From the NCBI GenBank assembly GCA_902464275.1, contig CABQIK010000002.1, positions 14 through 64,013 on the forward strand: a DNA stretch of 64,000 nucleotides, given 5' to 3'. Under the pieces are notes generated by a model that did not search any database, had not been told where the DNA came from, and was given only the letters and a program-made list of their open reading frames with translations. Position numbers and translations under genes: made by a program. This stretch comes from an uncultured Alphaproteobacteria bacterium. Lineage in GTDB: Bacteria; Pseudomonadota; Alphaproteobacteria; RF32; CAG-239. This document shows positions 38,127 through 63,148 of this stretch, in pieces. Within the stretch, counting starts at the first letter, position 1. Each line of letters opens with the position of its first letter.

Positions 38127-38203
38127 GGGTGTGTAGCTCAGGTGGTTAGAGCGTTACGTTGACATCGTAGAGGTCGCAGGTTCGAGTCCTGCCACTCCCA
38201 CCA
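38127..38203 (+). tRNA. tRNA-Val (anticodon GAC)
   Basis: Cloverleaf folded by hand: acceptor GGGTGTG/CACTCCC, D-arm GCTC-AGGTGGTTA-GAGC, anticodon arm TTACG-TTGACAT-CGTAG, T-arm GCAGG-TTCGAGT-CCTGC, then A-CCA. Confidence 0.9.
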
Positions 38204-38550
38204 ATAAATAAGTCCCCTTCACGGGGATTTTTTATTGGTGAAAACAGAAAGAACCTGCGACCTCGTTAGAGGCTTGAGGATAAAAACAGCCGAAGTAACG
38301 GCTGTTTTTACCGCAAAAGGCGTAGTTTTGTTTGCGAGCCAGGAAAGCGGCAGCGACCGCAGCGAGCCAACAAAACAAGTGACCGACGCGCAGTTAGTGA
38401 AAGCTTTTACAAAAATAAGCTTGCGGAGAATGCGGCTAATGTGCAGCAAGTTTTTTTCTGCGGTATACTAAACCGCTACATAAAGAAAAAACTTGCTAGC
38501 AGGAGCCCATTATACGCAGGCGTAAAAGCTTGAACTTACTAAGCTAGACA
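38204..38550. mobile_element. small non-coding tRNA-associated element bounded by 81/82-nt direct repeats (38178-38258 and 38551-38632) that comprise the tRNA-Val 3' end plus its downstream hairpin
   Basis: The second copy of aggttcgagtcctgccactcccaccaataaataagtcccct(t)tacggggatttttt(t)attggtgaaaacagaaagaacctgc is read directly. The internal segment gaggataaaaa-hairpin-ttttt...gaccgcagcgag... is ~70% similar to the tRNA-Thr-linked 275-bp unit. Confidence 0.55.
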
Positions 38551-38652
38551 AGGTTCGAGTCCTGCCACTCCCACCAATAAATAAGTCCCCTTTACGGGGA
38601 TTTTTTTATTGGTGAAAACAGAAAGAACCTGCAATACCGTGGCTTTTGTAAA

Positions 38653-40542: not shown

Positions 40543-41484
40543 ATGAAAAGTGAAATTATATATAATACCGACTCCGAACTGCACACCACCATTGTAAATT
40601 GGCTTTTGTGGCTTAAAAACGAGCGCCGCTATTCTGAGCATACCATAGACGCTTATGCCCGCGATATGGCGTGTTTTGTTAATTTTTTTGCAAGCGAAAA
40701 TGCGGTAAATATTGACTTTTTGCGCAATATGCAGGTGCATGACTTCAGGCGCTTTATCGGCTTCAGAGCCACTCATTACATTGAAAAATCATCACAATCA
40801 CGCGAGCTTTCCGCGGTTAAAAACTTTTTTAAGTGGCTGGATAAAAACCATATCTTGAAAAATTCCGCCATCAGCGTAATCAGCAATCCGCGTCTGCCAA
40901 AGGTTTTACCCAAAGCGCTTGATGTTACTGACGCGCAAGACTTGCTACAACAGGTAAAATCTTTTGCCAAAGACGATTGGCAAGGTTTGCGCGACCAAGC
41001 CATTTTGATTTTGCTATACGGCTGCGGATTGCGTATTTCAGAGGCGTTATCCTTAAACGTTGGCGACATAAACGCCAACAGTGAATTTTTGCGCATAAAA
41101 GGAAAAGGCAACAAAGAAAGACTTGTTCCTTTGTTGCCCATAATCACTGAAGCCGTAAACGCCTATACCACTGCCGCGCCATATAATTTTAAGCACGGCG
41201 AGGCTTTGTTTGTCGGCGCTCGCGGTGAACGTTTAAGTCCGCGGATTATTCAACGACAGTTGCAAAAGATTCGGGCGTATATGGGCCTTCCTGATACTGT
41301 GACGCCCCATGCTCTGCGACATTCTTATGCAACTCATTTATTAGCTGAGGGAACCGACCTGCGCTCCATTCAGGAGTTATTGGGTCATGCGTCCCTAACC
41401 ACAACCCAACGCTATACCGATGTTCAGACCGAAACCTTAAAACGTGAATACGATAAGGCGTATAGTCCTGAAACAGATAAATAA
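40543..41484 (+). CDS. tyrosine site-specific recombinase (XerC/XerD family)
   Basis: C-terminal catalytic region HALRHSYATHLLAEGTDLRSIQELLGHASLTTTQRYTDV with the R..HxxR..Y pattern. Confidence 0.8.
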   Translation: MKSEIIYNTDSELHTTIVNWLLWLKNERRYSEHTIDAYARDMACFVNFFASENAVNIDFLRNMQVHDFRRFIGFRATHYIEKSSQSRELSAVKNFFKWLDKNHILKNSAISVISNPRLPKVLPKALDVTDAQDLLQQVKSFAKDDWQGLRDQAILILLYGCGLRISEALSLNVGDINANSEFLRIKGKGNKERLVPLLPIITEAVNAYTTAAPYNFKHGEALFVGARGERLSPRIIQRQLQKIRAYMGLPDTVTPHALRHSYATHLLAEGTDLRSIQELLGHASLTTTQRYTDVQTETLKREYDKAYSPETDK

Positions 41485-46094: not shown

Positions 46095-46285
46095 AATTCC
46101 ACTCCTGAGGAGGGGGGCGGCGCTAGCCGACGGGGTGGTGAAAATATAAGGTTAAAAATTATACTTAATTTACGGTTTTTTGTAATATAAAACAAATATT
46201 TAATACGCTGTTAAACAGTGCAATAACCACCCCGCCTTCGGCACCCCTCCATAGAGGGGAATTTTTTATAGTGCCAATTTACATA
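46095..46285. mobile_element. second copy of the MITE-like element (aattccactcctgaggagg ... ccatagaggggaattttttatagtgccaatttacat) immediately upstream of the paralog 7 promoter
   Basis: ~75-80% identical to 751-1005. Flanked by a degenerate acaatttatgtaca (46069-46083) and an exact acaacttatacaca (46286-). Confidence 0.5.
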
Positions 46286-51156: not shown

Positions 51157-51402
51157 TACTTATATTAAAAATGAGAAATTCATATCTCAAAAACAGCTTA
51201 TTTTTCTATTTTTGAGAAACGCATATCTCAAAAATGGTTGACTTTTGTAAAATGAGCATGTGCTTTAGAGCCAAATACTGTTTATGTTTCGGTTCCTGCA
51301 AATAAAAACAAACTATTAATGTGTTGCAAAACAGTGCAATAACCACCCCGCCTTCAGCACCCCTCCTCGGGATGGGAATTTTTTATAGTGCCAATTTACA
51401 TA

Positions 51403-52147: not shown

Positions 52148-52277
52148 TAATAACATTTGAGCGCTATTATTTTTCAACAAAAACAAACAATTAATGCGCT
52201 GATAGATAGTAATGAGACCACCCCGCCTTCGGCACCCCTCCTCGGGATGGGAATTTTTTATAGTGCCAATTTACATA

Positions 52278-53034: not shown

Positions 53035-53143
53035 AAAACCCTGCGGATAGCGAGGCAGATGCACAGTAACATTTTTTTGCCGTGTACGAATAGTTACATA
53101 AGAAAAAAAGTTACAAGCAGATGCCCGCTAGACGCAGGGTTTT
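53035..53143. repeat. ~109-bp nested palindromic intergenic element (RPE-like): outer IR aaaaccctgcg / cgcagggtttt, inner IR cagtaac / gttac
   Basis: Read directly. Shares cctgcgga.a..g.g.cagatgc and a terminal acgcagg with the in-frame leader insertion of paralog 11. Confidence 0.6.
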
Positions 53144-59534: not shown

Positions 59535-60032
59535 ATGCCGGTTTTCGTTAATGATAAAATGCAAAATAACTATGTATATGAGCGGGTTTCACCAGAAGGC
59601 AAAAATTTTGCCCCTGATTTTAAGCCTGAACTTTCACCGATACAAATGCTTGCTATGGGGGTGTTTGAAGGGCATTACTTAAATGATTGCCTATATGAAT
59701 TTCCTGAAAATTGGTTTACAGGTGCGCGATTGTCATTAAATAAACCGGATATAAATTGCAACTGTTTTCAAATAAAATCACGTCTTTCCTTGCAGGAATG
59801 GCGGCGCAAAGGTTGGATATTATATCCTGATCCGCGCGGTTGGTTTCAGTGGTATTGCCGATATTATAGCGGCAGACGTATTCCTGAAATTGATATTGTG
59901 CAAATAAATCGCTGGAAGGCGTTTCGGCGGCATTTGGCACAAATTGAGCATAATTGCGCGCAATTTGACTTTGAATGTCGCCCCAAACAACGCCAGGCTT
60001 TATTGCAGTGGGCATACAATCCGCTGTTTTAA
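59535..60032 (+). CDS. hypothetical Trp/Cys-rich protein, probably co-transcribed with the Y-family polymerase
   Basis: AAGGAG RBS 7 nt before the ATG; 165 aa; no recognised motif. Confidence 0.45.
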   Translation: MPVFVNDKMQNNYVYERVSPEGKNFAPDFKPELSPIQMLAMGVFEGHYLNDCLYEFPENWFTGARLSLNKPDINCNCFQIKSRLSLQEWRRKGWILYPDPRGWFQWYCRYYSGRRIPEIDIVQINRWKAFRRHLAQIEHNCAQFDFECRPKQRQALLQWAYNPLF

Positions 60033-60038
60033 TCAATA

Positions 60039-60130
60039 CAACTTATGCACAGCACGGACTCGTAAATATTGCAAAAAAAAAACGCGGAGTAAAATCTTCT
60101 TAAATTAACTGTTTTGAGGAGATTTTTAAT
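60039..60130 (+). promoter_or_regulatory. conserved pilin-family upstream element (variant: cgcggagtaaaatc)
   Basis: caacttatgcacagcacggactcgtaaatattgcaA10cgcggagtaaaatcttc...gaggag. Confidence 0.55.
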
Positions 60131-60886
60131 ATGAAATCACATTTTAGCCGCTTTTTACACATCACATCGTCATATTCGGGCTTGACCCGAATATCCAGGT
60201 GGAAAAAATTTGCTACTTGGTTTGACCTGGACACTCCGGTCAAGCCCGATAATGACAGCTTGTGTGCTGGTCGGTCTATGGTGGAAATGCTTGGCGTTCT
60301 GGCAATTATCGGAGTCTTATCCGTCGGGGCGATTGCCGGATACAGTAAAGCGATGTTTAAGTACAAATTAAATCAGCATGCACAAGCGGTTAATATGTTG
60401 ATAAATAATGCGCTTTCAATTAAAGATCAATTACAACATAAACTTAACGCGACCACATATTACGGAACCCTGTTGCACAAAATGAATCTGTTACCCGACG
60501 GTATAGAATATATTTCTGATACCACATTAAAAGAAAAGTATTTCAATAGCAATATTATGGTTTATTATATGCATAAGGAAGGTTTTGAAGACTTTGGCGG
60601 AATAGAGTTTAGCTTCAATCCCACAGCACAAGGTGCGGAAGTTTGCCGCAACATTGCATTTGCCGCCAAAGAAAATGCCGCTAATTTATGGGAGCTTGAA
60701 ACATATAAATATTTTAATGACACAACTTCAGGTGACGGTAAATTCATCGGGCATATATACGGTGATTCCTATTGTACAGAAGAAAAAAGCTGCCTGCGTG
60801 ATTTGGACTTAAACAAAATAGAAAAATTGTGCAACGATTGCAATGAAAAACGTTGCATGTTGTATGTTTTGTGGGAAAACCGCTAA
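60131..60886 (+). CDS. type IV pilin-like protein, paralog 10, with a ~123-bp in-frame palindromic insertion in the leader (leader 47 aa instead of 6)
   Basis: MKS[HFSRFLHITSSYSGLTRISRWKKFATWFDLDTPVKPDNDSLCA]G|RSMVEM.... Insertion bounded by the 11-bp IR cgggcttgacc (60177-87) / ggtcaagcccg (60238-48), with an inner IR tccaggt / acctgga. The mature part is subfamily B. Confidence 0.65.
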   Translation: MKSHFSRFLHITSSYSGLTRISRWKKFATWFDLDTPVKPDNDSLCAGRSMVEMLGVLAIIGVLSVGAIAGYSKAMFKYKLNQHAQAVNMLINNALSIKDQLQHKLNATTYYGTLLHKMNLLPDGIEYISDTTLKEKYFNSNIMVYYMHKEGFEDFGGIEFSFNPTAQGAEVCRNIAFAAKENAANLWELETYKYFNDTTSGDGKFIGHIYGDSYCTEEKSCLRDLDLNKIEKLCNDCNEKRCMLYVLWENR

Positions 60887-60889
60887 ATA

Positions 60890-60979
60890 CAACTTATGCA
60901 CAGCACGGACTCGTAAATATTGCAAAAAAAAAACGCGGAGTAAAATCTTCTCAAAACTAACTTTTTGAGGAGATTTTTT
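60890..60979 (+). promoter_or_regulatory. conserved pilin-family upstream element, starting 3 nt after the stop of paralog 10
   Basis: caacttatgcacagcacggactcgtaaatattgcaA10cgcggagtaaaatcttc...gaggag. Confidence 0.55.
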
Positions 60980-61687
60980 ATGTTTATTCTAAAAAATAAT
61001 CCAAGCCTGCGGAGAATGAGTCAGATGCGACGGAATTTTGGAGCGACTTGTACACAAAAAGGTACACGAGCGAGAAAATCCCTAGTAGATGACCATTATA
61101 CGCAGGCCCTAGGGCGGTCTATGGTGGAAATGCTGGGAGTTCTTGCCATTATCGGGGTACTGTCGGTTGGGGCGATTGCCGGATATAGTAAGGCGATGAT
61201 GAAGTATAAATTAAATAAGCAATCAGAGCAATTAACTCAAATTCTGTTTTCATTAGAACATTACCGCGAAATGCTTGGCCGCGACCGCAACAATATTGCA
61301 ACAAACACTTCTATAATCACTTTGCTCACCAAACTGAACGCCATTCCGCTTGAAATGATTAGACCGAATGATAATTTACAAATTTACGATGTTTTTGGTA
61401 ATCGTGTCAGTATTAGCTATTACGGAAACGGTTATTCTTATAACCTTGCGGTTTATTATCAACCCGACCAATATGATGTTTGCAATAATGTGTTTGAGCT
61501 GATTAAAGCCAATAGCGAAAAACTTTACTCTGTGGGTGTTAAACTAGATCAAACCGGTGATTTTGCTTCTCCGGCGTTATATGGAAAAACTATAAACAAT
61601 ATCAACAAAAGCGATATTTATGATTACTGCGCTTTATGCAAAAGCGGTCCTCGCTGCCGTGTTTCCGCCAATTTCAAATTTGAGTAA
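60980..61687 (+). CDS. type IV pilin-like protein, paralog 11 (divergent), with a ~117-bp in-frame palindromic insertion in the leader
   Basis: M[FILKNNPSLRRMSQMRRNFGATCTQKGTRARKSLVDDHYTQAL]G|RSMVEMLGVLAIIGVL...AGYSKAMMKYKLNK. Insertion has terminal IR gcctgcg (61004-10) / cgcaggc (61101-07). The track N-terminal extension is rejected. Confidence 0.6.
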   Translation: MFILKNNPSLRRMSQMRRNFGATCTQKGTRARKSLVDDHYTQALGRSMVEMLGVLAIIGVLSVGAIAGYSKAMMKYKLNKQSEQLTQILFSLEHYREMLGRDRNNIATNTSIITLLTKLNAIPLEMIRPNDNLQIYDVFGNRVSISYYGNGYSYNLAVYYQPDQYDVCNNVFELIKANSEKLYSVGVKLDQTGDFASPALYGKTINNINKSDIYDYCALCKSGPRCRVSANFKFE

Positions 61688-61757
61688 AAAACAAAACAGA
61701 ACATATTAAATTATCGTAACAATACACAAAGAGCCTTGATTTTTCAAGGCTTTAAAA

Positions 61758-62521: not shown

Positions 62522-63148
62522 ATGAAAAAAATAAAAGTATTCTCCTCCGCTTTGGAGATACGCCCTGCCAGTACCATTTTCGGTACGGAATTTCAGGCTG
62601 TAAAGCTCAGTTTTGAGCAGGCAATGGCTTTCAACTCGGGATTTCACTCATTTGAGCACATGTTGGGAACCTATGGAAAATCAAAGGTTTTAAGGCTTGG
62701 CGAACAATATGACGGTTATGTGGCCGTATATTACAACAAATGGCAACAAGACGTAATAAGGTTGCGCGGCGCAGTTGTGCATTTTTCAGAATCTGAGATT
62801 CTCAACATGATGCCTTCAGCCTTGCGTGATGCCGCACTCAAAAATGCCGCCTACAAAGTTGTTTACAACACTGCCGGCGGAGAGCAAGTTCAGGGAGCTG
62901 CGCTATATGTGTGGACATTCAGCGGCTGTAACTTTGCCAGGCATATTCACGCCCTGCAAACGGAAAGAAAGATGTCGCTTTCTATCTGTCCTGACGTCTT
63001 AGACGCGAGCATCAAGAACAAAATTTTCCAGTCACTGACCGCCGATGAGGCCGTCAGCATTACGGAAGATGAAGATGATGTTTTGCTAAGCTATCTCGGT
63101 AAACCTTTTTACATGAAGTTCATTGTTGAAGTTCCCGATGAGGAATAA
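62522..63148 (+). CDS. hypothetical protein (208 aa, acidic C-terminus)
   Basis: Long ORF followed by the terminator at 63169-63204; no recognised domain. Confidence 0.45.
   Translation: MKKIKVFSSALEIRPASTIFGTEFQAVKLSFEQAMAFNSGFHSFEHMLGTYGKSKVLRLGEQYDGYVAVYYNKWQQDVIRLRGAVVHFSESEILNMMPSALRDAALKNAAYKVVYNTAGGEQVQGAALYVWTFSGCNFARHIHALQTERKMSLSICPDVLDASIKNKIFQSLTADEAVSITEDEDDVLLSYLGKPFYMKFIVEVPDEE

Follow-up and report, generated by a model that had tools for sequence, protein, structure and literature searches.

Why two adjacent genes of one pilin-like family should carry leader peptides far longer than those of their sister genes is the question raised by a stretch of 64,000 nucleotides (the window; G+C = 41.9%) from an uncultured gut alphaproteobacterium, contig CABQIK010000002.1. 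The window holds 11 pilin-like paralogs, all on the + strand. Nine of these have 5 residues before the glycine at the predicted cleavage site, compared to 46 in paralog 10 (ATG 60131, Gly codon 60269) and 44 in paralog 11 (ATG 60980, Gly codon 61112), which makes whole leaders of 6, 47, and 45 residues, respectively. The extra DNA amounts to 123 bp in paralog 10 and 117 bp in paralog 11, both multiples of three and both with zero stop codons. The explanation favoured here, considered probable but well short of certain, is that the long leaders are in-frame palindromic repeats, carried as tolerated passengers and spread mainly by recombination of a 5′ module. The genes concerned, and the codon to which the leaders are measured, are as follows.

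60131–60886, + strand: pilin-like paralog 10, an open reading frame (ORF) of 251 aa with 46 residues before Gly-1
60269–60271, + strand: Gly(-1) codon of paralog 10, the putative prepilin peptidase cleavage site (G↓RSMVE, with Glu at +5; motif common to all paralogs)
60980–61687, + strand: pilin-like paralog 11, 235 aa from ATG 60980, with 44 residues before Gly-1

The N-terminus G↓RSMVEMLGVLAIIGVLSVGAI(A/S)GYSKAM is common to all 11 paralogs, as is the class III (prepilin) signal pattern of Gly-1, Glu+5, and a hydrophobic N-terminal helix of ~20 residues. Profile support for a pilin identity was weak, as neither PF07963 (E = 0.0086) nor TIGR02532 (E = 0.05) reached the cut-off; the paralog 10 protein has 7380 homologs, some of them annotated at source as type II secretion protein or pseudopilin PulG. 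If class III signal peptides are a guide, the leader would be cytoplasmic and removed by a prepilin peptidase after Gly-1. Among the window ORFs scanned, no gene for a prepilin peptidase or for pilus machinery was found.

In both genes the leader is occupied by a palindromic element, designated ins10 and ins11 after the paralog, and the two belong to different families.

60140–60268, + strand: family A element ins10, made up of a prefix (60140–60168), an L unit (60169–60200), a spacer (60201–60224), an R unit (60225–60256), and a suffix (60257–60268)
61004–61108, + strand: family B/C/D element ins11, a hairpin of ~105 nt whose internal loops are conserved and whose centre is a GTGTAC..GTACAC stem (covariance model, 100.1 bits)

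The arms of ins10 (60169–60200 and 60225–60256) are 32 nt long and 84% complementary, those of ins11 (61005–61018 and 61094–61107) are 14 nt long and 86% complementary, and no common sequence was found between the two elements. Predicted folding energies of the sense strand, for element lengths of 129 nt (ins10) and 128 nt (ins11), were −49.9 kcal/mol (z = −5.7) and −39.8 kcal/mol (z = −5.3), respectively, with none of 200 shuffles as good in either case. An earlier, sequence-only reading of this locus had described the long leaders as in frame, unrelated to each other, and bounded by inverted repeats, all of which is confirmed by the ORFs, the arms, and the folding scores; the inverted repeats that it quoted exist, and the full arms are longer than it stated. 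The further claim that both insertions sit at the same place is exact for ins10, which leaves the codons M-K-S intact upstream, but not for ins11, which begins practically at the start codon (MFILKNN...) and thus has its left boundary 1–3 codons upstream of that of ins10. An internal start giving paralog 10 a short leader was considered and rejected, as the lone in-frame TTG, 3 codons before Gly, lacks a Shine-Dalgarno (SD) sequence and lies within the hairpin.

The structure of ins10 is that of a REPIN-like composite, an inverted pair of repetitive extragenic palindromic (REP)-like hairpin units (GTCA-stem-CTTGA-stem-TCCAGG) flanking a spacer. Its L unit forms a perfect local 9-bp hairpin (60172–60194, pairing 60172–60180 with 60186–60194) and its R unit is chimeric, combining two unit types (cactccgg-TCAAG-cccgataatg), with the unchimeric form present in the allele of strain L115. 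A modular build emerged from the DNA of 62 long leaders in related metagenome-assembled genomes (MAGs), which derive from uncultured gut Alphaproteobacteria of humans and animals: a prefix (xFSRFLHH), 0–2 outer units of 39 nt, a core left unit (GTCA, 9-bp stem, CTTGA, stem, TCCAGGT), a spacer of ~25 nt, a core right unit that is the reverse complement of a left-type unit, 0–4 outer units, and a short suffix. Leader lengths among homologs step by 13 residues (46, 59, 72, 85, or 52, 65, 78). The units each fold alone, with 94% of cells paired and compensatory changes in 5 of 9 pairs, in a covariation set that takes in Sinorhizobium, Ensifer, and metagenome copies. Identical 33-mers serve as left units and, reverse-complemented, as right units, and the spacer occurs in both orientations; one unit type (‘ttatcggg..cccgataa’) occurs on the right only and on the left would read TAA.

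Within the focal lineage, family A was confined to pilin genes. In ~0.95 Mb, 78 hairpin units were located in pilin leaders and four outside the leaders detected by the scan, two of these in a missed family A leader at the start of a contig (L014) and two chance-like; beyond the latter two, no copy was found in unrelated ORFs or intergenic DNA of that sample. Elsewhere, units of the family A consensus, some of them as inverted pairs around a spacer, are found in replicons of Sinorhizobium, Ensifer, Shinella, and Rhizobium and on high-GC metagenome contigs, and other gut Alphaproteobacteria have the full composite at sites outside genes, where every frame contains stops. BLAST searches with ins10 returned weak matches only against plasmids (E = 0.03–0.4), which are useful solely because the whole unit architecture recurs, and chance 10–15-mers only against the window.

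The second family (B/C/D), to which ins11 belongs, has two other copies in the window, neither of them within a leader.

38418–38522, + strand: second window copy of family B/C/D, intergenic beside tRNA-Val (covariance model, 94.1 bits)
53038–53140, + strand: third window copy of family B/C/D (D type), 19 nt past the stop codon of paralog 9 and between convergent genes (101.9 bits)

The copy beside tRNA-Val has the length and terminal arms of ins11, and its interior differs by compensatory changes. An alignment of 18 sequences yielded a consensus hairpin with compensatory changes in 17 of 28 pairs, rising to 20 of 28 pairs, with 93% of cells paired, in the covariance-model alignment, far above both controls, though an alignment fitted to the model favours structure. 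The covariance model identified 38 copies in 0.97 Mb (~24 in pilin leaders; nine directly 3′ of pilin genes, some in tandem arrays; three elsewhere), and all 38 are co-oriented with the pilin genes. On the sense strand G-U pairs outnumber A-C pairs by 72 to 26, an excess that is suggestive only; one column contributes part of it, and a sense-strand model was used to fit the alignment. In their left halves, types C and D differ in reading frame, which indicates that this family is conserved as nucleic acid and not as peptide. No Rfam model matched at the gathering score, with only generic microRNA-hairpin models at E values up to 10, and ins11 had no BLAST match among plasmids. Despite attC-like traits (a site 3′ of genes, strand bias, and structural conservation), identity as an integron attC site was rejected, as the ends (GCYTGCGG...CGCAGGC) lack the RYYYAAC / GTTRRRY core sites; no integron integrase was seen. 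Around the intergenic copy, the last 26 nt of tRNA-Val (38127–38203) and ~55 nt downstream recur at a distance of 373 nt (38178–38258 versus 38551–38632), a duplication that encloses the element and resembles the att duplication of a small element that has integrated or decayed. The idea of a tmRNA at 38260–38575 was rejected, as ARAGORN and Rfam find only tRNA-Val and the apparent ‘CCA end’ is the duplicated tRNA 3′ end.

Long leaders are common in the lineage. About half of the pilin N-termini of related genomes have one (62 of ~123), with a length of 16–96 aa. Nested or tandem elements also occur in leaders (P0082, L054, L051), from which it follows that new copies do arise there. Distant relatives (BRZ MAGs L035, L039, L045, L054, L057, L074, and L082) carry other leader elements, among them MNLFKFFSFSFHAHNERRQADAALC and a ~126-nt element that is scored weakly by the family B model. 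In some distant MAGs, Gly-Arg(-Ser) codons occur on both sides of the element, with different nucleotides.

The sequence-only reading had allowed that paralogs 10 and 11 could be pseudogenes inactivated by insertion. When the conserved motif of the 5′ untranslated region (UTR) was located regardless of frame and the first ATG after the SD was taken, 37 of 37 long leaders, over 16 distinct lengths, were in frame with the Gly codon and stop-free; one further gene (L014) has lost its ATG. The exact paralog 10 protein, long leader included, recurs on 16 metagenome contigs, and the mature domains of both paralogs are intact. These patterns argue strongly that selection keeps the frame open and that the genes are alive, and inactivation, which was not borne out, is extremely improbable, even with leaders far longer than any described for a prepilin (PMC3927602) and an L115 allele in which a family A leader is followed by a truncated pilin remnant.

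It is also very unlikely that the long leaders are ancestral functional extensions of a type-IVb-like kind, to which the palindromes would be secondary. Compensatory changes in the stems alter the encoded residues (SYSGLTRIS, SHSGLTGVS, SLSDLIGES, SPSGLTRWS), the frame of reading differs between types C and D, family B copies lie outside ORFs, family A composites lie outside genes with stops in all frames, leader length varies over its full range of 16–96 aa, and some orthologs have 5-residue leaders. Such an origin would agree with the invariably kept frame, with the presence of related leaders across many MAGs, in most of the best 120 of the 7380 homologs, and with the nearly invariant FSRFLH of the family A prefix, where variation is mostly synonymous (5 synonymous versus 2 non-synonymous variable sites; binomial p about 0.013). 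Conservation at the level of the peptide, which the sequence-only reading had set against insertion, is thus seen in part, for family A alone and in this prefix; the rest of both elements is conserved as nucleic-acid structure and not as peptide. Described type IV leaders have <10 aa (IVa) or 15–30 aa (IVb) (PMC3927602). The proteins studied here resemble type IVb in their prepilin-like N-terminus (Gly-1, Glu+5, hydrophobic helix) and in a leader longer than that of IVa, but their leaders are longer still (45–47 aa in the window, and as many as 96 aa in relatives) and are encoded by palindromic DNA, which those of IVb are not, and sister paralogs with identical mature N-termini have leaders of 5 aa.

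How the elements reached so many genes is indicated by comparisons between genomes. Variable C-terminal domains of pilins that are 81–98% identical between different genomes are joined to leaders that are short, of family A, or of type B/D, as in paralog 5 (short) and L056 (A), paralog 2 (short) and L063 (A), paralog 11 (B) and L081 (A), and L038 (half-A) and L059 (D). Across the pilin family, conservation is normally highest over the first ~90 nt that follow the Gly codon; in the swapped pairs these are only 73–83% identical, compared to 93–100% for the rest of the gene, which implies that the replaced block comprised the 5′ UTR, the leader, and ~30 codons, bounded by sequences common to the paralogs. 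At the locus of paralogs 10 and 11, between orf165 (59535–60032) and orf208 (62522–63148), at least five structural arrangements occur between 98%-identical flanks (60131–61753 compared to L085–L092 and L115), one of them the L115 arrangement with its truncated pilin remnant. The 98% homology between strains breaks exactly at the start codon of paralog 10 (60130/60131), and in strains with 98%-identical flanks this locus is occupied by other pilin cassettes rather than by element-free versions of the two genes. The empty-site comparison proposed by the sequence-only reading accordingly succeeded for other paralogs, with a clean empty/filled pair in paralog 5 and L056 (MKS-EN-G versus MKS-[57 residues]-ENVG), but gave no such pair for paralogs 10 and 11 themselves. 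No unambiguous target-site duplication was found at the clean pair; terminal inverted repeats are present. These sequence comparisons suggest that recombination or gene conversion between paralogs and strains may be the main route of spread, favoured over repeated transposition.

Under repeated transposition, each long leader would be an independent insertion, at a preferred target in the 5′ end of a pilin gene, of a mobile repeat (of the kinds compared below) moved by an autonomous transposase. The occurrence of unrelated families at the same site, the nested or tandem elements in leaders, the tandem arrays 3′ of pilin genes, and the relatives of the units outside genes elsewhere would all be expected of such mobility. 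The swapped blocks run ~90 nt past the element into the conserved N-terminal coding region, however, the clean filled/empty pair lacks a clear target-site duplication, copies in other ORFs were not found in ~1 Mb of related loci, and no Y1/RAYT-type transposase (Y1_Tnp) was found among the 20 window ORFs scanned with Pfam, a search confined to the window. On balance, this account is unlikely.

Comparison with known repeats places the elements close to, but outside, several described classes. Rickettsia palindromic elements (RPEs) are palindromic, ~105–150 bp in length, form long hairpins, and lie in frame within genes without destroying them, with non-coding copies also known (PMC10969869, PMC3184786). 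Both ins10 and ins11 are likewise palindromic, of the ~105–150 bp class, form long hairpins, and are translated in frame, and to this extent the RPE-like interpretation of the sequence-only reading stands. RPEs, though, are dispersed over many unrelated genes, unlike these elements, which keep to a single site in a single gene family; they come from an uncultured gut alphaproteobacterium and not from Rickettsia, and their spread looks recombinational. The promiscuous insertion into unrelated ORFs that the analogy implied was not observed, with family A in pilin leaders only (78 units versus two chance matches in ~1 Mb) and family B/C/D in leaders, pilin 3′ flanks, and a few intergenic sites. 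Nor was RPE membership supported, as none of eight long-leader proteins matched the RPE1 domain (TIGR01045, NCBIfam) at E values up to 10, in a library that seemingly represents only RPE1.

A REPIN is defined as two REP units in inverted orientation around a short spacer, the whole forming a long hairpin (PMC3337134, PMC3116915). This describes ins10, with its two inverted imperfect-palindrome units of ~32 nt and short spacer, and is not applicable to ins11. REPINs differ in lying outside genes, in tens to hundreds of copies and linked to RAYTs, whereas family A in this lineage is found in frame within pilin leaders only, and the extra 39-nt units and spacer flipping of family A are absent from the REPIN description. 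Repeats of the MITE type (miniature inverted-repeat transposable elements) can extend the 5′ or 3′ ends of ORFs, invert (Correia), and be cut by RNase III, and SPRITE, of ~105 nt, lies near convergent genes' 3′ ends (PMC10969869, PMC3184786). The elements resemble such repeats (Correia, ERIC, BOX, SPRITE) in being small and hairpin-forming; where family B/C/D sits 3′ of genes it is like terminator-like repeats such as SPRITE, the copy at 53038–53140 being situated between convergent genes. They differ in that no signature of terminal repeats with target duplication was found and no parent insertion sequence is known, and a strict tie to one gene family and its leader peptide has not been described for MITE-type repeats. 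A literature search for palindromes in pilin leaders found nothing relevant.

Upstream of the leaders, all 11 paralogs are preceded by a near-identical block of ~95 nt, which includes the SD.

60036–60130, + strand: promoter/5′ UTR block of paralog 10, with the hairpin pairing the SD at 60091–60126
60887–60979, + strand: promoter/5′ UTR block of paralog 11, with the hairpin pairing the SD at 60942–60977

The block contains promoter-like boxes (TTGCAA-15 nt-TAAAAT) with an A10 tract in the spacer (A9 before paralog 9). Their role as a promoter is a guess, and a promoter scan, which needs a spacer of 16–18 nt, does not call them; by its sequence, the A-tract would allow phase variation by slippage. 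Further downstream, a hairpin of 14–16 bp, followed by a T run, pairs the SD (GAGGAG) with AAAATCTTCT. The SD is predicted to be fully paired in 10 of 11 paralogs, paralog 5 being without the 5′ arm, and these predicted folds suggest that translation may be off by default or attenuated. That the leader element frees the SD was considered and discarded, as the SD is paired in predicted folds with or without the element.

This last result bears on the possibility that the palindromes are domesticated, pilin-specific cis elements acting at the RNA or DNA level, as REP/REPIN-derived hairpins situated in the cleaved leader and at the 3′ ends of the same genes, among dozens of phase-variable pilin paralogs. 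Candidate roles as RNA include a translation or stability gate, an RNase III site, or a protein-binding hairpin, with a precedent in the RNase III cleavage of Correia-containing transcripts (PMC10969869); as DNA, the elements could be a recombination, inversion, or cassette-exchange signal setting which pilin paralog is expressed or exchanged, and a separate role for the conserved FSRFLH leader peptide is conceivable. In favour are the restriction of family A to pilin leaders, the orientation of all 38 family B/C/D copies along the pilin genes and their position at 5′ coding or 3′ ends, the presence of an element in about half of the paralogs, the spacer flipping, the hypervariable cassette locus, and the G-U excess. 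Against this possibility, the SD pairing is the same with and without the element, a flipped-unit allele creating a stop codon was seen in none of 37–62 leaders, homologous units lie outside genes in other taxa, and the G-U excess has the limits given above. Domestication is a tentative alternative, possible but doubtful.

The passenger explanation can be set out as follows. Palindromic elements, a REPIN-like composite in the case of ins10 and a structured hairpin of ~105 nt from a second family in the case of ins11, would lodge in the prepilin leader, the one part of the protein in which added residues should be harmless. A module of 5′ UTR, leader, and first ~30 codons would reach new pilin genes mainly through homologous recombination or gene conversion, the module being bounded by the promoter block and by the coding region of the N-terminal helix, both common to all paralogs. 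A recombining 5′ module of this kind would account for adjacent paralogs with unrelated elements at the same place. Several points weigh against this explanation. The tolerance of leaders of 45–96 residues is an assumption, and recombination alone leaves the first arrival of each family at the leader site unexplained, a difficulty posed by at least two, and probably four or more, unrelated families. Passengers alone would not obviously reach about half of the paralogs, in pilin genes only and in a single orientation, which hints at function or targeting, and the synonymous bias in FSRFLH suggests some, if modest, constraint on the peptide itself. Furthermore, the related loci fetched (~1 Mb) are pilin-centred, and the absence of elements elsewhere rests on that sample.

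Other features of the window and of the related contigs concern the setting of the pilin genes. Their neighbours in the window are housekeeping genes of a Gram-negative cell (LptD, LptF/G, SurA, MurJ, GrpE, DinB). A repeat, CCACCCCGCCTTCGGCACCC, with an adjoining terminator-like hairpin occurs in four copies (0 expected; 882–901, 46227–46246, 51343–51362, and 52218–52237), each shortly upstream of a pilin promoter block, and its reverse complement is also present in L038. An ORF for a XerC/XerD-type tyrosine recombinase (40543–41484; Phage_integrase, E = 4e-41) begins 36 nt past the stop codon of paralog 6 and may simply be a housekeeping Xer protein. Pilin genes, at their conserved 5′ ends, are very often the point at which contigs of related MAGs (L007–L084) start or stop, the promoter and N-terminus common to the paralogs being an assembly-breaking repeat in MAGs. 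One MAG, CAVBCV01, is labelled Lachnospiraceae, and its content agrees with this alphaproteobacterial clade.

The main known source of palindromic repeats read in frame is Rickettsia, whose copies are spread over many genes. Here two or more unrelated families are concentrated in one type of site, the leaders of a greatly expanded pilin-like family, across a whole lineage, and the RPE-like reading needs revision in three respects: the elements are tied to one gene family, are widespread across the lineage, and appear to be exchanged within a recombining 5′ module. As such, they may represent repeat elements that spread through a gene family by recombination of a common 5′ module rather than by transposition, and they allow a natural experiment on prepilin processing, in that they probe how long, and how arbitrary in make-up, a leader may become before processing fails. 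In practical terms, the repeats break metagenome assemblies and mislead the calling of start codons. The many paralogs, the strain-specific cassettes, the A-tract of the promoter, and the paired SD also mark what would be a surface-protein system of very high variability, in organisms of which next to nothing is known.

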